Shown here one piece after another: positions 5,199-57,136 of a stretch of 64,000 bases of DNA. This DNA is from a virus. The stretch's first letter is position 1, and every line of letters starts with the position of its first letter. Made by a program: the position numbers and the translations under genes. The DNA is taken from the IMG/VR virus record IMGVR_UViG_3300050016_000310; one strand, given 5' to 3'. The notes under the pieces were generated by a model. That model saw only the letters and a list, made by a program, of their open reading frames with translations, searched no databases and had not been told where the DNA came from.

Positions 5199-7748
5199 CT
5201 ACTTGGCCTTATTGTTTTTCAACGATTCGATCTGCTTACCTAACTCCTCGATCCTTTTCTTGTCCGCTGGAGTCAATTCCGATTCATGTTTATCTTCGAG
5301 TTTAGCCATCTCATCTTCCAAAGAGACAAGCTCTCCGGAAGCGGCTTCCAAGATTTCCAGCGCGGCTTTCGTGCGCAGGACCTTCTTCAGACCCTGGTAC
5401 TTCACGAAGTGCTCGGGAGAGGCTTTGGTCTTCTTGCCCTTCCCCTTGCCTGCCTTCGTCCGTTTGCCCTTGCCCTTCTTGGCGCGAGCTTCGACGACCG
5501 CAAGAGCCGCCGCGATGCCGGGATACTGCGCGGCATTCACATCGAGATGCGTGACCATCTCTTTGACCTTGCCGCCGGTCATGGGAGGCAGCAAATCTTC
5601 GCCCCCCTCATCAACACCTTCTTCCGCGCCTTCGCCTTCTTCCGAGCCGCCTTCGCCCATGAAGGGCTCGACCGCCATCAGGATCTCTTCCGCCCACTCA
5701 CGGTCCTGCTCCTTGGCGCCGTCGTCCAGCTGGTCATAGGGGACCATCCGGGGCTCCCACTCAGTCTTCAGCTCCTCGCTGACTTCGCCCTTTACCGATT
5801 CGGCAAACTCCAGCCATTGCTCATGGGCCACGGCAGCCAGGGCTTCAACCATTGCGTCTCGTTGTTCTTTTTCCATAGATTCCTCTGCTGCCTGAACCGA
5901 GTTGTTGACCCTCGGGCTGTGGTTGACGAAAATATATTCGAAGCCGTCCTTCTCCGCCTGCTCGATTGCGTCTTCGATGTCGCGCTCTTCCGGATCCTCA
6001 AGGTGAATCCCGATCATGCCTCTGTGCGAGGGATGCGTCTCCTGCACGATCTTGATGACGTTGCCGTCACCCAAATCCACTTCCCGGATCGGCTTGGGTG
6101 GATTGAGCGCCATCTTCTGCGCCATCGGTTCGACCCCCAGCTTTTCGTACATCTGCTGGGGGGAATCATCCTCATCAAACGGGCTCGCCGCTTCCACCGT
6201 CGGATAGCTTCGTTCCGCGCTGGATTTGGAGCCGTAGAGGCTGTGCAGCTTCTCCTTGGCGTTCTCCAGCTTCTTCTTGTCCTCGGCGCTGAGATTTCCC
6301 CCGGCCCGATTGATATAGAAATTCAACCGAGACATCGCCTGCTTCAGATCCTTCGCCCCACGCTTCAAACCTTCCGCGATCTTCTCAGCCGACTGCTTAA
6401 AGAAGCCTTCTTTGGGGTGCCATTCGGGTGAAACATTATGCGACCACTTCTTGGCCGTAACGGCTCCCTTGGCAGGGCCGTCGCCCTTCTCCACCACCCC
6501 GGCGGGCGGATTGTGGCCGGTGACTTCGATTACATCACCATCCTTGCTGACGATGTAGCCACCAAAGAGGTTGTTGTCTTTCTTCCACTTCCAGTTGCCC
6601 TGGCCGAAAAGGCGGTCCGCTTCCCGCTCGGCTTCGCCCTTGGGATCGCCTGAGATGTACTTCATCCAAGGCTTGCCCATGGCGGACGATTCGTCGTCAT
6701 GGATCAGAAGCCGGTCCCAAACTTCTTTGTTGCCCGCCGCCACCCGCATGTAGCCCGGAGGGAATTTTTCCTTGGCCGCAGACTGCGCCACTTCAGCTTC
6801 CTCGAAAGCTTTGACCAACGAGTAGGATTGGAGAGACGCCAACGCCTCTGGATTGGGTGGGAGCGCGGGCGGAGGCGTGTCCTTCGTTTCCTGCAATCCC
6901 CCCGTCTCGTCCAACTCCTTGCCCAACTCCACCAGAACTTCCTGAGGCACTTCGTTCGTAGAAGGCCCATGGTGGTCCTTCGCCAGTTGAATGTAATAGG
7001 CGTCCGTCTTGGGTTCCGCAGCCGACTGGGCCTTATCCGGATCCATCGAGGTACCGTCCAGGCAAGCGTCTCGGCCATCGTCGTAATTCTTGCAGCCCGC
7101 GCCGGGGCCATTGACGGGGGCTGGGGCGGCTCCGGCCGCCTCATTCCCGCGCTCCTTCGGTTCGCTATCGACAGAAAGAATCGAGCCGGGCCCACCAAAC
7201 TTCTCGACCATCTCCTTGACGGCCTGGATATCCTTCGGATCTTGGATGTCCACCCAGAACTCAATGACACCTGCCTTCCGCTCATCCGCAGCCGCCCCGC
7301 ATTCAAACTTGCCTTCCATCTCGGCGGCCAGCTCTTCCGCGTTAATCAGAGAATCTTCCCCACCGGGATCTTTGACTTCGAGGTGCATGGCCCAGTCTCG
7401 GATTGATAGGGTGTCGTCACCGCCCGTGCTCACAGTAGGTCCCTTGGCGGGCTCGGGGCTCTTGTTAGTCCAGTGCTGTCCATAAAAATGAGTCACCTCA
7501 TAGGGGGGCTTCGAATCGTAATGGGTTTCCTCGATCCACTTCGTAAGACCTGCGACATCCAAATCTTTTAGATTGGTGTCTTGAATGTAGACATACTCGT
7601 GGCCGTTGATCGATCCGATCACGTCGCCTTGCTTCTCCACGAATTCAATCTTGCCCTCGGGGCTATCAATCGTTTCCTTGCCACCCACGGCGGGACCGGA
7701 AGCGGTCGTTTTTTTAAGCTCTCTCCAGGCTGCTTGAAGTGAGGACAT
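5199..7748 (-). CDS. Large acidic mosaic protein with DUF3175-like and RyR-like domains; probable internal head protein
   Basis: KKWS...AMSRLNFYINRAGGNL...AKEKLHSLYG resembles DUF3175; AHEQW...VPYDQLDDGAKEQDR resembles the RyR domain; lies directly downstream of the putative protease. Confidence 0.6.
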   Translation of the reverse strand: MSSLQAAWRELKKTTASGPAVGGKETIDSPEGKIEFVEKQGDVIGSINGHEYVYIQDTNLKDLDVAGLTKWIEETHYDSKPPYEVTHFYGQHWTNKSPEPAKGPTVSTGGDDTLSIRDWAMHLEVKDPGGEDSLINAEELAAEMEGKFECGAAADERKAGVIEFWVDIQDPKDIQAVKEMVEKFGGPGSILSVDSEPKERGNEAAGAAPAPVNGPGAGCKNYDDGRDACLDGTSMDPDKAQSAAEPKTDAYYIQLAKDHHGPSTNEVPQEVLVELGKELDETGGLQETKDTPPPALPPNPEALASLQSYSLVKAFEEAEVAQSAAKEKFPPGYMRVAAGNKEVWDRLLIHDDESSAMGKPWMKYISGDPKGEAEREADRLFGQGNWKWKKDNNLFGGYIVSKDGDVIEVTGHNPPAGVVEKGDGPAKGAVTAKKWSHNVSPEWHPKEGFFKQSAEKIAEGLKRGAKDLKQAMSRLNFYINRAGGNLSAEDKKKLENAKEKLHSLYGSKSSAERSYPTVEAASPFDEDDSPQQMYEKLGVEPMAQKMALNPPKPIREVDLGDGNVIKIVQETHPSHRGMIGIHLEDPEERDIEDAIEQAEKDGFEYIFVNHSPRVNNSVQAAEESMEKEQRDAMVEALAAVAHEQWLEFAESVKGEVSEELKTEWEPRMVPYDQLDDGAKEQDREWAEEILMAVEPFMGEGGSEEGEGAEEGVDEGGEDLLPPMTGGKVKEMVTHLDVNAAQYPGIAAALAVVEARAKKGKGKRTKAGKGKGKKTKASPEHFVKYQGLKKVLRTKAALEILEAASGELVSLEDEMAKLEDKHESELTPADKKRIEELGKQIESLKNNKAK

Positions 7749-11903: not shown

Positions 11904-12680
11904 ATGTCTGATTTCCAGAAAATGCTCGACCGATTCAACGAGCATGAATCCCACCTCCGCGAGCTGGGCGATGCCCTGGTTCAACGCTACCCCCAATCCC
12001 AAAACCTGATCCAACTCTCCCAGGAACTCGGCGCCGCCATCGATGGCTTGGGCGCCCTCAAGACCCGCCTGGGTGACGCCATCCATGAAGCGGAGAGTCA
12101 GACGACCTTAGCGGCCGACTTGAAGCTCAAGATGGATGCCTCCCCAGTCTATCAGCAGCTCACGGAACGGGACCGCGCGAAGCTCACCGAGTACCTGCTG
12201 GCCAACGAGGCAGGGCTCGCGACCGATGCTGAGCTGGAAGCCTACGTGCTGCGCTCGCTCGAACAGAAATCAGAAGCCGAGCTTTTGGCTGAATTTTCCA
12301 AGGCCCACATCCTGGAGCTGGGCCAAGCGATCCAGCCGGGGGTGGGTGAGTTTGACGCCTACAAGTTCGGCACGGAAGCGCTCCGCAAGCAGTTTGGCGA
12401 TCCCCAGCAGAAGCAGGAAATCCTTGCGGATCTGGCCAAGGTTCTTCTGAAGGAGAGCCCCGGGACCGTGCTCAAGCTCTTCTACGCGGCGGCCTTCAAA
12501 CAGGACGAGACGCCGGAGCCCCCTGCCCAGCCCGCCACCCCGGCCGCCCCAAAACCGGCAGAACTCAAAGCGGATCCCGGCCCGGCCCCCATCGTGCAGC
12601 CGGAGGTTCCTGAAAACGCCAGTCCTTACACGCCGGAGCCCTCCACGAATGCTCCTGAGCCCGAGGCGGCGGCCGTATGA
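11904..12680 (+). CDS. Hypothetical helical protein with Pro/Ala-rich tail
   Basis: 258 aa, directly abuts the upstream stop codon. Confidence 0.7.
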   Translation: MSDFQKMLDRFNEHESHLRELGDALVQRYPQSQNLIQLSQELGAAIDGLGALKTRLGDAIHEAESQTTLAADLKLKMDASPVYQQLTERDRAKLTEYLLANEAGLATDAELEAYVLRSLEQKSEAELLAEFSKAHILELGQAIQPGVGEFDAYKFGTEALRKQFGDPQQKQEILADLAKVLLKESPGTVLKLFYAAAFKQDETPEPPAQPATPAAPKPAELKADPGPAPIVQPEVPENASPYTPEPSTNAPEPEAAAV

Positions 12681-13372
12681 GCGATATCTACGAGTTGCAG
12701 CAGCCAAGCCCCCACCAATCGGGGGCGGATCAATCGGGCACTCAGGAGGGACAACTTCCTTCGGTGCGCGATACGATTGACCCGGCTACCGTGGGGGACA
12801 AGGCGTTTGAGTGCAAGGAAGCGCTCATGATTCGACCTTATTATTTAGACATGAAGACCCAAAAGCTCAACGATTCCTATCCGACGCTTTCGAAGCTTTT
12901 GGAGCAGGGTGCCTACCCGACAACCGAACGCTTGCTCGCGGCGGAAGGCGACGGGGAAATGGAAGCTCCTCAGATGATCCAGACGGACCCAGCTGAGTCC
13001 GAAGAGCCCCCGATGGAGCCCGGCGCCGACGTGAGCCCTGCCGGTGACGACGCAGGCACCCGCGAAGCGACCAAGGCCGCGAACATGGAGAAGCTTGGGA
13101 TCGCGACCCCGGAAGAATTTGCCGCCAAGTTCAAGGGCAAGCTGGAAGAATTGGGCGAAGAGCACGGCATTGGTGATCCCCTGGCCTACAGCTTTCGCAC
13201 GAACAAGATCGAGCTGATCGGCACGGAAGCGATCTTGCTGATCGACTACGACATGAATGCGCTGCACACGCGCCCCATGTACCCGATCGAAGAATCCGAA
13301 CCCGCTACTCCTCCAGAAGAGGGTGGGGAAGGCGAGCCCGCTGCTCCGCCCGCTGAAGACAGCGGCGAATAA
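12677..13372 (+). CDS. Hypothetical acidic protein
   Basis: 231 aa, ATGA overlap with upstream gene. Confidence 0.7.
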   Translation: MSDIYELQQPSPHQSGADQSGTQEGQLPSVRDTIDPATVGDKAFECKEALMIRPYYLDMKTQKLNDSYPTLSKLLEQGAYPTTERLLAAEGDGEMEAPQMIQTDPAESEEPPMEPGADVSPAGDDAGTREATKAANMEKLGIATPEEFAAKFKGKLEELGEEHGIGDPLAYSFRTNKIELIGTEAILLIDYDMNALHTRPMYPIEESEPATPPEEGGEGEPAAPPAEDSGE

Positions 13373-30148: not shown

Positions 30149-31537
30149 TTGACTATGTGGTCCCGGGCCCCCTCAGCACCTCGTTACCCCTCCCTGAACC
30201 GGCTATTAGCCCATGCGCCCGCGTCCTGCTTCCGGATCCAATACCCCTGCCTGGCCGAGCTGGTCTTGGCCCGCAACGTCATCAATACCGAGCAGATTGA
30301 TCAGTTTCTCACCGGCATGCACGTCGAGGATATCCAGGAGATTAACGGCTGGCTCGATACGACGCTCCGCAAGTTCCTCATCAACCGCTACGACAAGGTG
30401 ATACCGTACAAACCCCTCCCCTCGGATCCGGCCTTCATGCAGGGCAAGACAGATCTGGAGAAGGTCGTACTGAGCGATGAGCTGACCAACAAGGTCCAGC
30501 ATATCGTCGATTATCTGAAGAACAAGCTGACGGCTGAGCCGACTTTCAAGCTCGGCGCCTTCCAGGCCGAGGAGGCGTTCAAGCAATCGGAGGAATGGTC
30601 CAAGCAGCTTGCGAAAAAGAAAACGACCGAAGAGGAAGAGGGCGTCGATTACAAAATCGTGATGCCGCTCGGGGAAGGTTACAACTGGGTCGATCTCATC
30701 AGCCAGAACTCCTTGCTCAAAGAAGGCAAGTCAATGGGCCACTGCGTAGGGGGCTATTGGGACCGGGTGAAGGCCGGGGTGGACCAGATCTTTTCGCTTC
30801 GCGACGATAAGAACGCGCCGCATGCAACGATCGAGTACAGCCCCCGCTCCCGGACCATCAGACAGATCAAGGGCAAGCAAAACCGGGGCCTGGTGGCCGA
30901 GTACATGCCCTACCTGTTGGAGTTTCTGAAGAATCCACCAGTCCCGGTTCGCAAAGTCGAGGAGTACGAGCTGGCCTTGAACGGCCTCCTCAAGGCCAAA
31001 GACGGGTACTTGTCGCTTCAAAACCTCCCCGAGGGAGCGCATATCGATCAGAATATGGATCTGTCCAAGTTCAAGGACATCACGCTGCCGAAAAATATGA
31101 CAGTCTCGGGCGACCTAAAAGTCACGAGTAGTAACTTCCTGCCGGAAGGACTCACGGTTACCGGCACACTCAACTTGACCAAGTCCGATCTCCGCGAACT
31201 CCCCGCCCGGCTTACGGTCGGGACGCTCAATATTTTCGGACTGGGCCGGATGGAGACGCTCCCGGACGATATCAAGATCTCCAAGGAGCTGAACGCGGAG
31301 TTCTCGGGGCTGGAAAAGTTGCCTGACAACTTCACGCTCAAGGGGGACTGCACGGTCAGCGACACGGCCCTCAAGGTACTCCCCAAGAAGCTCAAAGTGG
31401 GGGGTGAGCTGGATATCATGAATACCCAGATCGAGACCCTCCCGAAAGATCTGAAGGTCGGCAAAGCCATCTTCGTGGACGATCCCGACACGATGGAAGA
31501 TGAAGCGCCTGAGCATCTGAAAGATTTGGTGCACTGA
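30149..31537 (+). CDS. PcfJ-like domain protein with C-terminal LRR-like repeats
   Basis: EGKSMGHCVG...IFSLRD...PHATIE...QIKGKQN; LPEGLTV/LPDNFTL repeats. Confidence 0.8.
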   Translation: MTMWSRAPSAPRYPSLNRLLAHAPASCFRIQYPCLAELVLARNVINTEQIDQFLTGMHVEDIQEINGWLDTTLRKFLINRYDKVIPYKPLPSDPAFMQGKTDLEKVVLSDELTNKVQHIVDYLKNKLTAEPTFKLGAFQAEEAFKQSEEWSKQLAKKKTTEEEEGVDYKIVMPLGEGYNWVDLISQNSLLKEGKSMGHCVGGYWDRVKAGVDQIFSLRDDKNAPHATIEYSPRSRTIRQIKGKQNRGLVAEYMPYLLEFLKNPPVPVRKVEEYELALNGLLKAKDGYLSLQNLPEGAHIDQNMDLSKFKDITLPKNMTVSGDLKVTSSNFLPEGLTVTGTLNLTKSDLRELPARLTVGTLNIFGLGRMETLPDDIKISKELNAEFSGLEKLPDNFTLKGDCTVSDTALKVLPKKLKVGGELDIMNTQIETLPKDLKVGKAIFVDDPDTMEDEAPEHLKDLVH

Positions 31538-33861: not shown

Positions 33862-35532
33862 CTACTTCTTTTTCTTGGCGGCCTTCTTAGTGGGTTTGGC
33901 GGCCGGTTTTTTGTGTCGCTTCTTGCCAACTTTTTTGCTGACTTTTTTCTTTTCCGGTTCCGGCACCATGTAGCCGGTGTCGTGCAGCCGCTCAGGGAAG
34001 CGCTCGATCGCGGCCGACTCGTCAAAGCCGTTATCGTAGCTCCAATCTTTCCCGATAGGAGTTTCGGTTTCGAGGTGGTATCCAGACCCGGCGCCGTTTT
34101 CCGACAGGTTGTTGAAAATTCTCGCGAGCGGAACCACCAGATAAAATTTCCCGTCCGATAGAACGGTGGACTCTCCGTTGGGAAACTCAATACCCTCCAG
34201 CTCTCGGACGATCATCTTGTACATCTCGTCTTCGGTGCCTACCTGATGCCCGTCGTGAGCGGCATCCCGGAGTGCCTGGATCAAGTCCTCCGGCAACTCG
34301 TCCGCATGCTGCTTGTACCAATCCCCATTACTATAACCTTTGGAGGGGGACGAATCGGTCTCCCGCTCGACCTGCTTCACCGCTTCCTGAATCTTCGCAT
34401 AGGTCAGAGGATTGTCTTTTTGAAGGCTATCGATCAGCTGGGTGCAATCCAAATATTCAAGATCGTCAACGTCACTGTAGTAATCAAAATCTTCCATGGA
34501 GGGCAGGTCTACCTTGGCGCCCAGATCTTTCAACTTTTGGGAAAATTCTTCCGGGTAAGTACCATATAGCCAAACGTCATCCCCCTCCAGAGAGATCTCG
34601 GAACCCTCCCCGTCTTTGCTCAGGTTGTGGAACATCTGCTGAACGACTTTTTTAATCAGCTTCGGCTTATTTTTGACCACTTCGATATCTTGGACTTTGC
34701 CGTCCAATTTAATCAAACCGGCATTGCTCAAATCGCGACTATCCACATCCGCCGTTTTGAAATCGGTGAGTAGGAGATCCTTCACGTAGGAGTGATATTT
34801 TTCAACTACCTCCGCATTGCCTTTGCCCTTGATCTGATTGACGGACTTGCTGGTATCAGCACCGTGTCCGTGCAACCCCACCTCGATCGTCACGTGAGGT
34901 TCGTTCTGCGGATCCCTAAGAGAGAGGATCTGGACATTCCCTGAGTTTACATTTCTCCAGTAGCTTCCCACGCAATGGCCCATCTTGGTACCCTCTTGCG
35001 ACAGGGTCGCCTCAGAGGTTAGATCACGCCAGGTAAATCCATCCGAATACTTCTTGAAAATCTTCTCACCCTCAAGCGCTTCCCCTTGATCGACCTTCTT
35101 CTTGGTCAGCTGCTTTGTCCACGCGTCCGACTGCTTGAGTGCCTCCGGCACCGTCAGGGCATCGAGCTTAGCCGGAGCCTGCTCCGACTTCAGATAATCG
35201 ATGACGTGACGGATCTTGTCCCGAAGAGGCTTGTCGATCTGGACCCTGAAAATCTCTTTGCCTTCATCCAGGGCCTTTTGAAGCCAGGGGGGTGATGTCG
35301 GATCAGTCTGATGAACCTGCCGGGCCTCTTCGTAATCCCGAATCAGATACTTGCGGAGGTTCGAGTTCAACCATTGGCGGATCGGTTCGTCTTCCTGAAC
35401 CCCCACCGTCTGCACGAACCGGTCAATGTCCTCGACGTTGACGACGTTGCGCGCCAACACCACCTGGGCGAGCGTCCGGTATCGCCAGTTATTTCCAAGG
35501 ACTTGCGCGAGGGTGGGATAACGCGGCGGCAT
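33862..35532 (-). CDS. PcfJ-like domain protein, paralogue of 30149-31537
   Basis: LARNVVN, EGTKMGHCVG, ILSLRDPQNEPHVTIE, QIKGKGN. Confidence 0.8.
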   Translation of the reverse strand: MPPRYPTLAQVLGNNWRYRTLAQVVLARNVVNVEDIDRFVQTVGVQEDEPIRQWLNSNLRKYLIRDYEEARQVHQTDPTSPPWLQKALDEGKEIFRVQIDKPLRDKIRHVIDYLKSEQAPAKLDALTVPEALKQSDAWTKQLTKKKVDQGEALEGEKIFKKYSDGFTWRDLTSEATLSQEGTKMGHCVGSYWRNVNSGNVQILSLRDPQNEPHVTIEVGLHGHGADTSKSVNQIKGKGNAEVVEKYHSYVKDLLLTDFKTADVDSRDLSNAGLIKLDGKVQDIEVVKNKPKLIKKVVQQMFHNLSKDGEGSEISLEGDDVWLYGTYPEEFSQKLKDLGAKVDLPSMEDFDYYSDVDDLEYLDCTQLIDSLQKDNPLTYAKIQEAVKQVERETDSSPSKGYSNGDWYKQHADELPEDLIQALRDAAHDGHQVGTEDEMYKMIVRELEGIEFPNGESTVLSDGKFYLVVPLARIFNNLSENGAGSGYHLETETPIGKDWSYDNGFDESAAIERFPERLHDTGYMVPEPEKKKVSKKVGKKRHKKPAAKPTKKAAKKKK

Positions 35533-35857: not shown

Positions 35858-37318
35858 ATGTCAAAAAAAGTGAAAGCTCCCAAGAAAGAAAAGATCGCGA
35901 AGGTCACCAAGGTCACGAAGGCCAAGAAGACGATCGCGCAGGATGAACCCGGCTCTCTCGTGGCCGGGTCCGCCAATCTCCAGGCGATCGAAGGCTTCCT
36001 AGAGAAGCAGCTCAAGTGGACGGATCGTGTCCGCGCCAAAGAAGTGGCGTCCAATGAAGCTCTCGACCTGACGCTCCCCCAGTTCCTCTCCAAGTCCCTC
36101 GAAGCCTCCGTGAACCAGGAGGACGAAGCCTACGCGGAAGCGCTGAAGGCCCGCTCGGCCGACGATAAGCACACGGCGATCGTCAAGATCATCGAAGCGC
36201 GCCAGCGGGCGCTCACCGACACGACCGAAGATGAAGCGGCCGTAGAGGAAACTCAATACCTGGATGACGCCGGGGCAGAGCCCGACGCACTGAAGACCCC
36301 CCGCAAGAAGGGCTGGCTGGAGCGCACGTTCGATGAACTTTGCGTCCAATACCAAGCAGATCCATCCGATGACGTCCGCGACAGCCTCTTGGGCCTCATC
36401 GCCCAGATGGAAACGAATCGCCGAGTCCGGTTCTTCTACGATCTCCAGCAGCTCCGAATCGGCGCCTCCAACCGCTCCTCGACCTACGCTCGCGAGTTCG
36501 GGGTCAAGGACAGCTTCATCGATTACGCAGGCACCCAGCTGGAACGGCTGGAGCGTCACAGCGAGAAGATGGTGGACCGGATCCTGGCCCGCTCACCTGA
36601 CGGCGAGTTCTACGCCTATCTGATCGAGACCTACCTGGGTGTCGGCACGATGATGGCTGGTTGCATGATCTCCGAGATCTCCGCGCCGGAGCGGTTCCGT
36701 ACCGTCTCCTGCCTGTGGAAGTACGCGGGGCTCGCGGTCGTCAACAACGATCCCGCGACCGGCCGGGGCGGCCATTCACAGCGTCGGATGAAGGGGGAGG
36801 CGGCGGCCTGGAATCATTTCCTGCGCACCAAGCTCCTGGGAGTCCTGGCAAGCTGCATGATTAAAGCCCAAACCCGTCACATCGGGACGCCCGAGGAGAG
36901 CACGAAAGGTCGGAACGTCAAGGTCCTGAACGACTACAAGAACCGGCTCGCGACTCAGAACGATCTGGTCCCGGCATCCCAGCGGGTCTATAACGCGAAG
37001 GGCAAGGAAATCTTCACGTACCAGACGAACAAGCCAATCCAGGTCTACTCGGAAACCAAGCAGGGGCTTGGGGAAGTCCGGCCGTGCGACATCAAGCGCC
37101 GCTCCAAGGCCCACATCAACAAGATGGCAACCCGGTACATGATCAAAATGTTCCTGGTTGAGATCCTGAACAAGTGGAGAAACCTGAAGGGCTATGAATC
37201 TCTCCCGACGTACGACGAAGCGAAGCTGCGCGGTGGGATTCCCCACGGCGGATTCAACAACCGTCCGCTCCCAGTTCCGGCCGGGCGGAATCTCCCGCAG
37301 CCCAATCAGCACGCGTAA
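35858..37318 (+). CDS. tasA: Tas-like (Nop/IS110 C-terminal-domain) RNA-guided protein without evident nuclease, with long N-terminal extension
   Basis: YDLQQLRIGASNR, GVGTMMAGCMISEI, FRTVSCLWKYAGL, WNHFLRTKL, YKNRL, HINKMATRYMIKMFL; immediately upstream of dual-repeat arrays. Confidence 0.8.
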   Translation: MSKKVKAPKKEKIAKVTKVTKAKKTIAQDEPGSLVAGSANLQAIEGFLEKQLKWTDRVRAKEVASNEALDLTLPQFLSKSLEASVNQEDEAYAEALKARSADDKHTAIVKIIEARQRALTDTTEDEAAVEETQYLDDAGAEPDALKTPRKKGWLERTFDELCVQYQADPSDDVRDSLLGLIAQMETNRRVRFFYDLQQLRIGASNRSSTYAREFGVKDSFIDYAGTQLERLERHSEKMVDRILARSPDGEFYAYLIETYLGVGTMMAGCMISEISAPERFRTVSCLWKYAGLAVVNNDPATGRGGHSQRRMKGEAAAWNHFLRTKLLGVLASCMIKAQTRHIGTPEESTKGRNVKVLNDYKNRLATQNDLVPASQRVYNAKGKEIFTYQTNKPIQVYSETKQGLGEVRPCDIKRRSKAHINKMATRYMIKMFLVEILNKWRNLKGYESLPTYDEAKLRGGIPHGGFNNRPLPVPAGRNLPQPNQHA

Positions 37319-37328
37319 AATTGCTATC

Positions 37329-37373
37329 CTAATGGCAAGTCTGGGGGCATCTTGGGCCTCAACTTGCCATTAG
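37329..37373 (+). other. Stem-loop between tas and array 1
   Basis: 12-bp inverted repeat CTAATGGCAAGT / ACTTGCCATTAG. Confidence 0.6.
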
Positions 37374-37399
37374 AATGGCAACTCGTTCTTTGAAAAGAC

Positions 37400-38210
37400 C
37401 TGCGCCTCAGAAACTTTGAAACCCCTACGGAAAGATGCGCGCCCTAGTAGAAGTGAAATCCAATAATAAGCTGCTTGCCTAGATGTACGTGACGCCCTAA
37501 TGCCGCCCGCGAGCCTTTTTCCCGTTGTCACCCTAAGGTGAAATGCCTGCCTTTGGCCCTCTGAAATCCTATCAGCTATTGCGTGCCTACAAAAGGATGA
37601 AACCCAACCTCAACGGCGTGCCTCCGAATCGTTTGAATCCCTGCCAATTAGTGCTGGCCTCCGTGGACGTATTGAAATCCAGAATTGAATTGCTTGCCTT
37701 GCTTTCTTTGACGCCCCGAACTTAATCGCGTGCCCCTGCGGTCCTGAAGCCCTAAAATAAAATGCTCGCCCCTTATTGAGTGACGAAGCCCATAAGTGAA
37801 CTGCGAGCCCTGGAAGGTCTCGAAACCCCTATTGACCTGTGCGAGCCCAGCGCCTGTGAAACCCATAAGGAACATGCGAGCCCTGAGAATTCTGAACACC
37901 CTCTTTGATCTGCAAGCCAAGGATCGTGTGAAACCCTTTATAAGATTTGCGAGCCTAGATGCGAGTCCTTATCCCCGATCTACGTTGCGAGCCCTGAGAA
38001 TTCTGAACACCCTCTTTGATCTGCATGCCAAAAAGTTAATGAAACCCCTTCTCGTACTACGTGCCCGAGCTTATTTGAATCCCCCGTCTAAGTGCCTGCC
38101 CCTGATCCATGAAACCCAGACCTGGGTCGCGTGCCCTTCGTGTCGTGAAACCCATAATCTTATTGCGAGCCTCTCCTCCATTGAAACCCTACATCTCAAT
38201 GCGTGCCTCT
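37400..38210 (+). repeat. TIGR-like array 1 (~22 units of ~36 nt)
   Basis: Alternating TGCGAGCC-like and TGAAACCC-like octamers separated by ~10 variable nt. Confidence 0.9.
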
Positions 38211-38279
38211 CCGCCGTCCGATAGTCCGTCACGGGCCTTGCAAGCTAGAGGGCACCTGGGGGCTAGGAAGGGACTTAAA

Positions 38280-38564
38280 ATGAAGCGACCTACTTGGCGA
38301 GGCTTGGTGTTCTTGAGTCTATTGAGCCTCGGCGGCTTCGCGCTCGCCGATGGCGGTCCCTCTCCTACCCCTTCAACCTCCCCCACGACTCAACCGACAG
38401 AACAACCAGCGCCCACTCCCCTCGTCACGATCCCACCCATCATCAACAGCTGCACGCTCGTTGGATGGGCAGAAGGCAATACCGTGCAACTCTACACGTG
38501 CCCCGTGAACGGAAAGACTTGTGTTCTAGCTGCGGGCAATACGACTCAGCTTACCTGTTACTGA
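38280..38564 (+). CDS. Small secreted Pro/Thr-rich protein with Cys-rich C-terminus
   Basis: Signal-peptide-like N-terminus MKRPTWRGLVFLSLLSLGGFALA; four Cys. Confidence 0.65.
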   Translation: MKRPTWRGLVFLSLLSLGGFALADGGPSPTPSTSPTTQPTEQPAPTPLVTIPPIINSCTLVGWAEGNTVQLYTCPVNGKTCVLAAGNTTQLTCY

Positions 38565-38902
38565 TCAGAAGGGTTCGCAAGCTCAACAAGGGTCTGGCCA
38601 TGACAGGGCAACGGAAAACAGAAACATCCGAGGACCAACCCCTTCAGTTCCGGGATCCGGGCCAGCACCTCCGGCTGCGCCCGGATCCATTCCCGATGCC
38701 GGGCAATCGCCTCTAAATGGCTCGTGACCTTCACGCGGACGCCCGGCCCCCACTGCGTGGCGAACGGATTCCCCCAAAACGAAGGGCGACCCACGAAAAT
38801 ATCGTAGGGCTGCCGGAGGCAATGGACGACGAGCTGTTTTTTTATTTGTGCTCGCACCAGCGGCAGATCCCGTGAAGAAACATATCCCAATCTCCAGTCC
38901 AC
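38558..38902 (-). CDS. DUF4326-like protein (start uncertain)
   Basis: DIFVGRPSFWGNPF...LKGLVLGCFCFPLPCHGQTL. Confidence 0.8.
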   Translation of the reverse strand: MDWRLGYVSSRDLPLVRAQIKKQLVVHCLRQPYDIFVGRPSFWGNPFATQWGPGVRVKVTSHLEAIARHREWIRAQPEVLARIPELKGLVLGCFCFPLPCHGQTLVELANPSDQ

Positions 38903-40539: not shown

Positions 40540-41885
40540 TGCGAGCCTTGTGATGGGTGAAGTCCCTCGTGTATTTGCGAGCCTATGCTCCTCTGAAAAC
40601 CAAAACCTAGATGCGTGCCCCAATGGAAACGAATTCCTCCGAGACATTGCGAGCCTTAAGAAAAATGAAACCCCTATCCCTGGCGCGAGCCCCAAAAGAA
40701 TTGAAACCCTAAAGACCCACGCGAGCCCTTTCATAACTGAAGCCCCGACCTTTGGTGCATGCCAGCCTCATTTGTAGCCCCATAAAGCATTGCTAGTCTT
40801 TTAACCCAATGCTAGGGAACGCGAGCCTCGATCTGCTTGCCGAATGATCTTTGAAAACCTGCCAATACCTGCTCGCCTTGAATAAGGTGAAGCCCAATGC
40901 TCACATGCGCGCCTTAAAACGACTGAAGCCCGATATGTGATTGCGTGCCTGATGACAGATGAATCCCTAGCAAGGAGGGCGAGCCCCATGTCTCATGCCG
41001 ACCTACCAGCTCGTGCTTGCCCGATAGAATGTTGAACCCCTAACTATCTCTGCGAGCCCGGCAGCCCATGAATCCCAAAAACTGCGAGCGAGCCACAGAT
41101 GAATTGAAGCCCATAACATGCCTGCAAGCCTGGATACTTTTTGCAACCCTAAGTAGCCCCGCGAGCCTTCAGCCCAGGTGACCCCCTATATAATTGTGCG
41201 AGCCTTCAGCTTTGTGAGATCCAATTTTGTTCTGCGAGCCTTCCCATTTTTGAAATCCTTCGATGAAGTGCAGGCCCTATCAAAAATGAAACCCAATGCT
41301 ATCATTGCGAGCCCTAGCTCCCATGAAATCCTCAATCGGTGTGCGAGCCCTAGCTCCCATGAAATCCTCAATCGGTGTGCGAGCCCTTCGTACAATGCCA
41401 CCCTGTGTACTGTTGCGTGCCTTACTGGCCACGAAACCCGCAACCAATCTGCACGCCGTCCATAAAGTGAACCCCTACAGAAACCTGCGAGCCTATACCG
41501 CTGTGAATTCCAAAAACCATATGCAAGCTCTTACATTTCTGAACCCCTAATTGGACATGCGAGCCTCCAGACATCTGATGCCCCAGTCCGTTCTGCCTGC
41601 CTCAAAACTTTTGAAACCCCTACGCCGATTGCGTGCCAGAAACTGTATGAACCCCATAGTGTTTTTGCGTGCCAAGACAGCACCGAAACCCCCCATTAAT
41701 GTGCGAGCCCCGTTCATGGTGAAATCCAAAACCACTCTGCGTGCCGACGAACCGGTGAAATCCCTAATCTGACAACGGGCCTTGACAGCCATGCCATCCA
41801 AAAATTCGGTGCAAGCCCAACCTCTCCTGAAACCCAAAAGGCACTTGCAAGCCCTTCAGTCCATGACGCCCTTTTAGTTGCTGCT
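40540..41885 (+). repeat. TIGR-like array 2 (~37 units)
   Basis: Same dual repeats and ~36-nt period; exact tandem unit duplication at 41306-41377. Confidence 0.9.
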
Positions 41886-41912
41886 GGCCCCCGGAGCAAT
41901 CCGGGGGCCTTT
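41886..41912 (+). terminator. Intrinsic terminator closing array 2
   Basis: GGCCCCCGGA-GCAA-TCCGGGGGCC followed by TTT. Confidence 0.75.
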
Positions 41913-41926
41913 AGTAAAAGCTTTCC

Positions 41927-42271
41927 ATGGCTACTACTCACGGTCTCATCGTCATGCTCAAGCAACCGGCAACCGTTACGGCCGATCTCGGCTTCCCTAT
42001 CGGCAGAATTCAGAAACTCCAGATCACCGCCTCTCTCGATGATGGCGGCCTTCTACGGGCGGTAGCGATCCAGCATGATCCTGACAAAAAGTCAGATCGA
42101 ATCCTTCATTTCATCGTACGAGAGATGGTCTTCACCGAAAAAGAACAAAAAGTTTGGGTGGACATAGACATAGAAGATGCTACCTCGATCCCCTACGGAT
42201 TTTACTGGGACGCCAAGAGAGGCAAAATTGACCGCTGTTATCCCCAGCCCGATTCCCAGAAGGTCACTTGA
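41927..42271 (+). CDS. Hypothetical protein (IPYGFYWD family; paralogue at 51405-51760)
   Basis: AIQHDPDKK...IPYGFYWDAKRG. Confidence 0.7.
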   Translation: MATTHGLIVMLKQPATVTADLGFPIGRIQKLQITASLDDGGLLRAVAIQHDPDKKSDRILHFIVREMVFTEKEQKVWVDIDIEDATSIPYGFYWDAKRGKIDRCYPQPDSQKVT

Positions 42272-42994: not shown

Positions 42995-43575
42995 GGGGGC
43001 CCTCGGAGAGATGAAACCCAAAATGGTCTTGCACGCCTGATATGCATCGAAACCCAAAGAGCTGATGCGAGCCCTTGTTAACGTGACACCCCCGTCGTCG
43101 ATGCGAGCCTTAGAAATTTTGCCACCCGAATAAACCTGCGAGCCCTCGTATCCGTGAAACCCCTAAGTCTAGTGCAAGCCAGCTTGGGCGTTGAAACCCC
43201 TGACATTGCTGCAAGCCAAGTCCGTTTGAAACCCGAAGAGTGCATTCGAGCCCTGTATAGATTGGAACCCCTTGTGCCGTTGCGAGCCCAGGATGACGCG
43301 AAACCCCAAAGTATGGTGCGAGCCAGATTTCGAATCGAATCCCAAAAGTCGGTTGCGAGCCCCTGATGAAATGAAACCCAGACGTCTCCTGCAAGCCCCT
43401 CAGGATGTGGAACCCAAAATCATTATGCAAGCCTATGAGGCCATGAAAACCTAAACAACAACGCAAGCCTTCTCAATAGTGAAGCCCTGAAATATCGCCG
43501 CGAGCCAAAATCCTCCTGAAGCCCTTTTCATTTTTGCGAGCCTTAACAAGGCTGAATCCCTCCTTCTGTTTGCTG
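42995..43575 (+). repeat. TIGR-like array 3 (~16 units)
   Basis: Same dual repeats and ~36-nt period. Confidence 0.9.
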
Positions 43576-43607
43576 CCCTCCAGGAATCTCCTGGAGGGCT
43601 TATTTTT
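43575..43607 (+). terminator. Intrinsic terminator closing array 3
   Basis: GCCCTCCAGGA-ATC-TCCTGGAGGGC followed by TTATTTTT. Confidence 0.8.
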
Positions 43608-46454: not shown

Positions 46455-46766
46455 ATGACAGGCTTTGATAAACGATACCCCACAGTCGCCAAAACGCTCG
46501 TAGAAGCTATCTTTCCACCCCCTAAGGACGGCAAGGTATTTGCTACATTGCGTAAATACAAGGCTGTAGGGGGCCGTCAGGTATACTCAAATGGAGCTGG
46601 GCGTAAAATCGTACACTTCGTTTGGGATGCCCAACATGGGCATTGGGAAGTCTATACACGCCTCGGAGTAAACACTCATTCCATAAAAAACGATGGCAGC
46701 GTGGTGGACACTTTTGCAAAACGTGATGACAGGAAAAGGTTAATATTATATACCTGGACCCTTTGA
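46455..46766 (+). CDS. Hypothetical protein with RYPTVAKTL motif
   Basis: ATG at 46455; lower GC than flanks. Confidence 0.55.
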   Translation: MTGFDKRYPTVAKTLVEAIFPPPKDGKVFATLRKYKAVGGRQVYSNGAGRKIVHFVWDAQHGHWEVYTRLGVNTHSIKNDGSVVDTFAKRDDRKRLILYTWTL

Positions 46767-46810
46767 GTGTGCGGAAAATAGGCTAATAAATCTGTGCTAT
46801 AAGGAGTTTT

Positions 46811-47005
46811 ATGAAAGATGAGCGTAACCCCTGCACGGCAAATTACTGTTTTTGTTTTTTCGATAAGAAGAACAAACCCTGCTCACCCGAAGAAGTCGCG
46901 GCTATGGAAGATTCCGTTATGCGGATGAATAGGAATTTGGACATAACGCAAGAGCTTTGCCGCCAAGTGCGCGAGGCGGCAAAGAGATGGAAACCGTTGT
47001 GTTAA
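46811..47005 (+). CDS. Hypothetical small protein
   Basis: AAGGAG RBS. Confidence 0.55.
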   Translation: MKDERNPCTANYCFCFFDKKNKPCSPEEVAAMEDSVMRMNRNLDITQELCRQVREAAKRWKPLC

Positions 47006-47140
47006 GGCGAGACTCCCCTGAATTCAAATATATGATTGCTACCTACGCGATCATCTATGGGGGGTCATCTTTTAGCTACAACAGGTTAGCTGAAAACTAG
47101 GATTTTGAACGCACACTCAAAGGGTCCAGGTATTAATATT

Positions 47141-55588: not shown

Positions 55589-56102
55589 ACTCCATCCTCC
55601 AGGCCCCCGCTTCTAGCCGGGAGCAAGGTGGATGACAAGGTGTTTGTTTTTGGGCCTGCAACCCTGCCCAGCCCTTGAGGATTTCCTGGGTGTGGTTCCC
55701 AGGACCAGAACAACCGGGGCCCGCCGGAACCCCGGACTCCCCCAATACAGGATCTCAAACCCTAGTGAACGTGTCAACTACTATCTTTCTTGGGGGTGTC
55801 GGATAAGACACGGCTTTCCCTCCCAGGTGTCAAATCCACTGGACACTGGATACCCGGCTGATCCCCAGCCCCCTTACGGATCAGTATACTGATCCGTTCC
55901 ACGGGGAACCTCCGCCCGCTTCCCCGATCCCCCTGTCAGATTCCTGTCTAATTCCCGTCCAACCCTACGACACCACAGACGATCTGGCAGCCCCTGATCT
56001 CCTACATCCGGTTCCCCGCTTACCCCTCCCAACCCCTGAGATCCCCTGTGGAAGGTGTGTATTACTAGACTCATTGTATACAGTATTAAGAGGTGAGATG
56101 AT

Positions 56103-56927: not shown

Positions 56928-57101
56928 ATGGGTATCCGCGTCATAACCATCCTGCTTCTGGTGTTCCTGCCCGCCTGCGCCGGGCTCCGCGTCGCGACCT
57001 GCCGGTGTGACCAAACATTAGACCGAAAGCTGTTCCACGAGCGCGGCCGGGATTGCGACGACGCCTGCGTGACGGCGGGAGAACGACTCCCCACCCCTTA
57101 G
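56928..57101 (+). CDS. Small Cys-rich lipoprotein
   Basis: MGIRVITILLLVFLPAC lipobox. Confidence 0.5.
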   Translation: MGIRVITILLLVFLPACAGLRVATCRCDQTLDRKLFHERGRDCDDACVTAGERLPTP

Positions 57102-57136
57102 CCCAACTAAATCGTTAGTTGGGCTAAGGGGTGGGG
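57089..57136. repeat. Perfect 22-bp inverted repeat with 4-nt centre
   Basis: CCCCACCCCTTAGCCCAACTAA-ATCG-TTAGTTGGGCTAAGGGGTGGGG. Confidence 0.95.

Follow-up and report, generated by a model that had tools for sequence, protein, structure and literature searches.

TIGR-TasA systems use 36-nt guides for guide-directed DNA binding and repression (PMC12045711; 10.64898/2026.09.09.750476). Spacer acquisition in these systems is called unknown by Faure et al. (PMC12045711), by Xu et al. (10.64898/2026.09.09.750476) and in one more paper, and both founding papers leave the origin and expansion of the arrays open (PMC12045711; bioRxiv 10.64898/2026.09.09.750476). Faure et al. speculate that the short repeats minimise recombination (PMC12045711), and no paper describing duplication or half-guide exchange in TIGR arrays was found in the literature searched. 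The locus analysed here lies in a 64,000-nt stretch of viral DNA (IMG/VR record IMGVR_UViG_3300050016_000310; hereafter the window), and one of its arrays carries the same 40-nt string at two non-adjacent places. How, then, do the units of such an array come to be copied, exchanged and replaced?

The Predicted Tas Protein and Its Genomic Setting

The homologue profile of the protein encoded by tasA (Table 1) matches the structures of TasR (9MTY, E 4.7e-27) and TasH (21KL, E 4.5e-14), with far weaker matches to IS621/ISCro4 (E ~0.002), and the top 11 Foldseek matches to its predicted fold are all TasH or TasR. The single match in a Pfam scan is a weak one to Transposase_20 at residues 255-314. 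In the predicted model, an N-terminal extension of about 190 aa is all-helical. Judging from the Pfam scan and this helical N-terminus, RuvC and HNH domains are absent, and a DEDD recombinase domain is likewise absent from both the Pfam results and the model. The lack of a nuclease domain together with the all-helical N-terminus therefore assigns the product to the TasA subtype, a Nop-only, nuclease-free Tas. Y452 and H463 are invariant in our alignment of Tas homologues (A1). Y452 aligns with Y289 of SpTasH, which forms the C-terminal processing dyad of that protein with H296 (PMC13421893); Y452/H463 is thus a putative tigRNA-processing dyad, in which the histidine is equated by its position.

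Two PcfJ-like paralogues lie near tas. An ORF scan of the window also identified a DnaB-like helicase, a clamp loader, an SbcD-like nuclease and an integrase-family protein, and close Tas homologues adjoin terminase and DNA polymerase genes. The source of the window is likely a large phage. The sequencing runs that contain its DNA are peat metagenomes, the TasA protein is recorded on a 120-kb contig, and a near relative of the phage is absent from the three collections scanned (best identity 56%). Among about 55 distinct ORFs scanned, with about half of the 120-kb contig in view, there was no match to Cas1, Cas2 or reverse transcriptase. Long perfect inverted repeats are found elsewhere in the window (46746-47130, 55876-55897 and 57089-57136; one pair is about 370 bp apart).

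Table 1. Coordinates of the locus features, as positions in the window.
Feature	Position	Strand	Remarks
PcfJ-like paralogue	30149-31537	+	near tas
PcfJ-like paralogue	33862-35532	-	near tas
tasA	35858..37318	+	486-aa Nop-domain protein; profile and fold matches
Hairpin, tas stop to array 1	37321..37381	+	RNA fold, 25 pairs
TIGR array 1	37399..38207	+	22 dual-spacer units of ~36 nt
Shortened first edge repeat of array 1	37401-37406
First unit of array 1	37405..37429	+	resembles 41600-41624, not significantly
Duplicated unit, copy 1	37875..37914	+	40 nt
Broken unit just 5' of copy 2	37948..37985	+	edge, 4 nt, second edge-like repeat, 18 nt without proper loop repeat
Duplicated unit, copy 2	37986..38025	+	three units downstream of copy 1
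Decayed tail of array 1	38208..38247	+	without terminator hairpin (z +0.5)
ORF start downstream of array 1	38280
DUF4326 gene	38558-38902	antisense	between arrays 1 and 2
TIGR array 2	40540..41889	+	37 units; hairpin closes at ~41886-41909
Deletion scar in array 2	40820..40841	+	two edge repeats 6 nt apart
Exact tandem unit duplication in array 2	41306..41387	+	46-nt repeat
TIGR array 3	43012..43578	+	15 full units; terminator-like hairpin closes at 43575-43599

Anatomy of the Three Arrays

Downstream of tasA, three dual-repeat arrays run in the same orientation, with 74 units in total. Most inter-repeat segments (124/148) are 10 nt long, i.e. the third base of box C followed by a 9-nt spacer. 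Both repeats carry TG....CC, namely the UG of box D and the CC of box C. The preliminary description of this DNA had held that only TG...CC is nearly invariant in both repeats; TG and CC are indeed common to edge and loop, but the wording is imprecise, since C3 (76/76) and G6 (75/76) are fixed in the edge as well and vary less than T1 (64/76). A pair between positions 3 and 6 is possible in 75/76 edges versus 15/75 loops; Faure et al. have described such an extra edge base pair (PMC12045711).

Terminator-like hairpins lie 3' of arrays 2 and 3 (z -3.9 and -4.2, respectively). The tail of array 1 lacks one, so read-through into the ORF that follows is likely. No sigma-70 promoter was found for the arrays, and matches to a terminator-like motif are fewer than in shuffles; with neither a terminator behind array 1 nor a promoter found, its co-transcription with tas is plausible.

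In a CRISPR-type array, a single repeat of 23-47 nt alternates with spacers of about that length and cas genes are present, whereas this locus has two alternating 8-nt repeats, no Rfam match and no cas match in the scanned ORFs. It belongs to the described dual-repeat TIGR-TasA family (Faure et al. 2025, PMC12045711; Xu et al., bioRxiv 10.64898/2026.09.09.750476), with which it shares a Nop-only Tas adjoining edge/spacer A/loop/spacer B arrays of 36-nt period, the UG box D, the CC box C, the extra edge pair, an A-rich loop, the shortened first edge seen in array 1, the terminator-like hairpins that close arrays 2 and 3 though not array 1, a phage host and no adaptation genes seen. It is a variant of that family in three respects. 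Its box C is relaxed, with a base other than A at the third position in most cases; its Tas carries the long helical N-terminal extension and a leucine (L437) where TasR and TasH have Trp; and its guide set is large, with 74 units in three arrays where 5-15 is typical. A homologous Nop/RNA-binding domain is also found in IS110 bridge-RNA recombinases and box C/D snoRNPs; an IS110 element, however, has an N-terminal DEDD recombinase domain and a single bridge RNA, whereas this locus lacks both a DEDD/RuvC recombinase domain and IS ends, and its guides form a long regular array.

The third base of box C is A in only 32 of 148 cases (22%) in the window arrays. Across 74 other loci, in which Tas carries an aromatic residue at the site equivalent to L437, the median is 94%. 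In the eight loci of the window's Tas clade, this position is Leu or Ile and the proportion of A is 19-84%. The close clade as a whole (the window and L039-L049) carries one of these two residues, and Trp, Tyr or His is found there in other Tas proteins. Aromatic stacking on the box C adenine has been described for PlTasA (10.64898/2026.08.11.744272). Because it is confined to one lineage, we regard the association as no more than a lead towards possible co-evolution. Both repeats of the window keep UG and CC, and their boxes vary together, a divergence that the TIGR definition permits (PMC12045711).

A Stem Follows the tas Stop Codon

The preliminary description had noted a 12-bp hairpin separating tas from the array. 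Its perfect core is exactly as reported (37329-37340/37362-37373), but the structure was understated: the arms reach 37321-37340/37362-37381, and the core sits in a stem of 25 pairs (-35.6 kcal/mol, z -5.9) that begins 3 nt past the tas stop codon. A strong stem is also found 3' of the tas stop in 7/8 relatives, with unrelated stem sequences; its position is therefore conserved, and its sequence is not. An Rfam scan matched no family. The most likely role of the stem is protection of the tas mRNA at its 3' end, or insulation of that mRNA, after the array is cut off.

Each arm of the hairpin is itself an imperfect 18-bp palindrome (37321-37338 and 37364-37381, 43 bp apart), and a short alternative terminator-like fold is possible at 37364-37381. 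The palindrome has no close recurrence elsewhere in the window, which leaves an operator role for it without support.

Duplications and Scars in the Window

The 40-nt string that had been reported at two positions of array 1 is an exact repeat, maximal at exactly 40 nt, and the loop variant within it is found in only those 2 of the 75 loops. There are 4 exact spacer matches, against 0.02 expected from shuffles.

As the window is a metagenomic assembly, the duplications might have been produced by the assembler, which the preliminary description had named as what would refute its observation. In the Logan unitigs of one run (X1), the 40-mer has a depth of 22.6, compared to 10-12 for its flanks and 10.9 for the 131-nt middle, and the tandem duplicate of array 2 stands at 21 versus 10-13. 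The unitigs across the junctions are single-copy, and contigs of a second run (X2) end at the same bases, 37904 and 41335; it should be noted that X1 is possibly the source sample of the window and that both runs may come from one campaign. With both repeats at twofold depth and the same breakpoint in X2, the duplication is real, and an assembly artefact is hardly credible. Run X2 is almost identical to the window, with one spacer SNP (C>T at 40920, in array 2) and a 6-nt deletion at 42161 in a cargo gene, these differences being read from single low-depth contigs.

Just 5' of copy 2 lies a broken unit, which on its layout appears to be a rearrangement scar; its 18 nt without a loop repeat equal the length of a full target. 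A deletion scar is also present in array 2 (Table 1).

Spacer Sharing in Related Arrays

In order to place these duplications in the family, TIGR loci were gathered through Tas homologues and the repeat pattern, and their arrays were parsed heuristically. Keeping one array per strain group left 148 arrays on 116 contigs, with 1,815 units. Within these arrays there are 43 pairs of units with an identical spacer, where the between-genome rate predicts 0.33. The pairs are, however, not independent of one another, and repeats may be collapsed or joined chimerically in metagenomic contigs. Spacer sharing affects 27 contigs, including a complete chromosome (L184). Thirteen of the pairs share the whole unit and 30 a half-unit, and 30 are non-adjacent. 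Their lags range from 1 to 14, which rules out a fixed X-N-X 'target-site duplication' mechanism, and neighbour similarity by lag is weak (z <=2.5).

The copying is in register. No exact copy from an A slot to a B slot is present among the 148 arrays, and the edges beside a shared spacer show fewer differences than expected (7 vs 15.5; 8 vs 16.8), whereas those distal to it differ as expected (11 vs 10.5; 8 vs 8.2). Co-inheritance of the proximal edge without the distal one is what copying guided by like repeats leaves behind, as opposed to independent acquisition. Acquiring the same or overlapping target sites more than once could account for the families of similar spacers present within lineages, and several guides per target would be useful for repression. 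We nevertheless consider it very improbable as the source of the repeated spacers: rare repeat variants travel with the copies (the loop variant found in 2/75 loops; also in L082), and sharing is never from A to B even though swapped spacers are functional (PMC12045711).

The 40-nt copy stops at the 4|5 boundary of the following edge repeat, which is the mid-edge cut site of tigRNAs (PMC12045711). This, together with the relationship of Tas to IS110 recombinases, would fit a route in which whole mature tigRNAs, from mid-edge to mid-edge, are copied back by RNA-templated or Tas-assisted insertion. However, there is about an 18% chance of sharing that edge prefix anyway (14/76), the 43 pairs appear to co-inherit both halves of the adjoining edges, with no clear mid-edge junction, and half-unit copies outnumber whole-unit copies. 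Moreover, TasA lacks a recombinase domain, and the scanned ORFs yielded no reverse transcriptase. Such copy-back is accordingly an improbable origin of the pairs.

Individual arrays display further features. In L082 (1875-2270, reverse strand), unit 0 matches unit 6 and unit 3 matches unit 9, both at an offset of six, which suggests an old six-unit block duplication whose other units may have been replaced later. In the arrays of L134 and L137, slippage of GA dinucleotides lengthens spacers and creates new units, which amounts to a second route of mutation. Read by eye, the arrays of L041 (~12030-13310) and L049 (~6920-7720) are followed by an apparent tRNA gene cluster.

Turnover Between Close Strains Is Internal

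Comparison of close strains locates the changes. In the closest clade, L034 and L044 (98-99% identical) have X-M versus X-N-X in mid-array and differ in the second-last unit, while their first and last units are the same. A third strain, L038, is a mixture of the two arrangements; across this series, the four possible combinations of alleles are all present at two sites separated by 70 bp, a pattern for which contig chimerism is a possible source. One B spacer is replaced between L082 and L091 (99.9%), and one internal unit differs between L111 and L112. Between L111 and L113, and likewise between L161 and L187, both ends are kept and the middle differs, having been replaced in the former pair. 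Shared units are collinear in 29/31 strain pairs, so turnover consists of internal insertion, deletion and replacement rather than wholesale shuffling.

Array order across related phages, the comparison suggested in the preliminary description, gave no average fall in sharing towards either end: the sharing of units by array fifth is 0.49, 0.41, 0.39, 0.54 and 0.49 (SE ~0.1, 12 groups). There is also no positional gradient in repeat decay on average. The proposal that units are copied 'rather than only added at one end' is thus borne out by differences that are internal and by the lack of average end polarity across the strain groups.

These data bear on a CRISPR-like alternative, namely that some adaptation machinery adds units at one end, with internal duplicates being secondary and strain differences mostly deletions. 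Many spacers are restricted to one strain, and the collinearity of shared units is compatible with such addition. In the L005/9/11/28 group the 3' end is conserved and the 5' part variable, with sharing rising from 0.19 to 0.56, as polar addition would give. Neither sharing nor repeat decay has an average gradient, however, the L034, L111 and L161/L187 groups retain both ends and differ in mid-array, and half-unit swaps and X-N-X patterns cannot arise by deletion. Addition at one end is therefore an unlikely account of the arrays as a whole.

Point drift accompanies the in-register copying. Between strains, 194 spacers are 1 nt apart, versus 6-11 expected, and 202 are two changes apart, versus 60-103 expected. 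In 796 of 1,462 directed between-strain unit comparisons, the unit has no relative in the other strain, and most unshared spacers are at least three changes from any neighbour. Since most unshared spacers look unrelated, a further source of new sequence must exist; recombination reshuffles existing spacers and does not explain unrelated new ones.

Copying Between Arrays

The first unit of array 1 had been described as closely resembling a unit of array 2 near 41598. The strings are present, but the likeness is suggestive only: the repeat (CC + loop) accounts for 10 of the 25 matching letters, the pair scores 12/20, which about 4 window pairs per run also attain after column shuffling, and a statistic tailored post hoc gives 0.09-0.14 such array 1/array 2 pairs expected by chance. 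No spacers are common to different arrays of the window at >=8/9. Another weak likeness, of 37615-37651 in array 1 to 40834-40869 in array 2 (a shared 7-nt B-segment start, 11/20), is within chance.

In the relatives, exact spacer matches between arrays of one genome number 2, against 0.11 expected, and one further case was seen by eye in L042. Such sharing is about ten times rarer per comparison than within arrays. One 72-kb phage contig with at least 5 arrays (L052, L066, L079 and L081) has 12 near-identical spacers between its arrays, versus 0.66 expected.

Taken together, the earlier proposal that units are copied within and between arrays stands for its first part, given the two exact duplications in the window, the 148 related arrays and 13 strain groups, while copying between arrays is unproven in the window.

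A Proposed Route of Array Turnover

Our preferred reading, to which we give a probability of about 0.7, is that the arrays change by in-register internal copying and loss through their own short repeats, followed by point drift, and serve guide-directed binding by TasA. We infer recombination from the sequence pattern. Misaligned recombination or slippage between the short repeats of an array, always in register, would allow two kinds of exchange: edge with edge, by which whole units would be gained, lost or duplicated, and loop with loop, or edge-plus-loop, by which single spacers would be swapped. Such exchanges could occur anywhere along the array, and point mutation would then make the copies diverge. 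The copy at 37986 would be a recent product of exchange, with the scar beside it.

As for function, the array would be transcribed, probably together with tasA. By analogy with published TIGR-TasA, the Nop domain of Tas would cut the edge repeats to give 36-nt tigRNAs; these would guide a TasA dimer to 18-bp DNA sites, which it would bind without cutting, most likely repressing host or competitor genes. Self-targets in the window do not exceed chance in any of four geometries with gaps of 0-2 nt, and no perfect target match was found for 1,602 units in 1.85 Mb of loci. Matches with 1 and 2 mismatches number 6 and 78, close to those of re-paired controls (4.8 and 65).

CRISPR arrays also undergo internal spacer duplication and loss through repeat-mediated recombination. 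Spacer loss in these arrays is cited by Faure et al. (PMC12045711). The likeness extends to internal gain and loss directed by repeats and to non-adjacent duplicate blocks. In contrast to CRISPR, the repeats of the window are 8-9 nt long and of two kinds, so that recombination also makes chimeric guides and new A/B pairs; no Cas1-Cas2 was found among the scanned ORFs, and no average leader polarity is seen.

Implications for TIGR Array Evolution

A wider, tentative and on balance doubtful possibility is that a TIGR array acts as a combinatorial library that diversifies itself. By recombining in register at the 8-9-nt repeats, it would re-pair A and B half-guides and duplicate units anywhere, mutation would retune the copies, and new 18-bp specificities would arise without an adaptation module; in the Tas clade of the window, a relaxed box C, matched by the loss of the aromatic residue in Tas, would let the repeats drift.

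The relaxed box C suggests that there are natural Tas proteins with looser rules for the guide scaffold. The duplications in the window and the strain series constrain how TIGR arrays evolve: their turnover is internal, keeps register and often involves half-guides, unlike CRISPR adaptation at the leader end.
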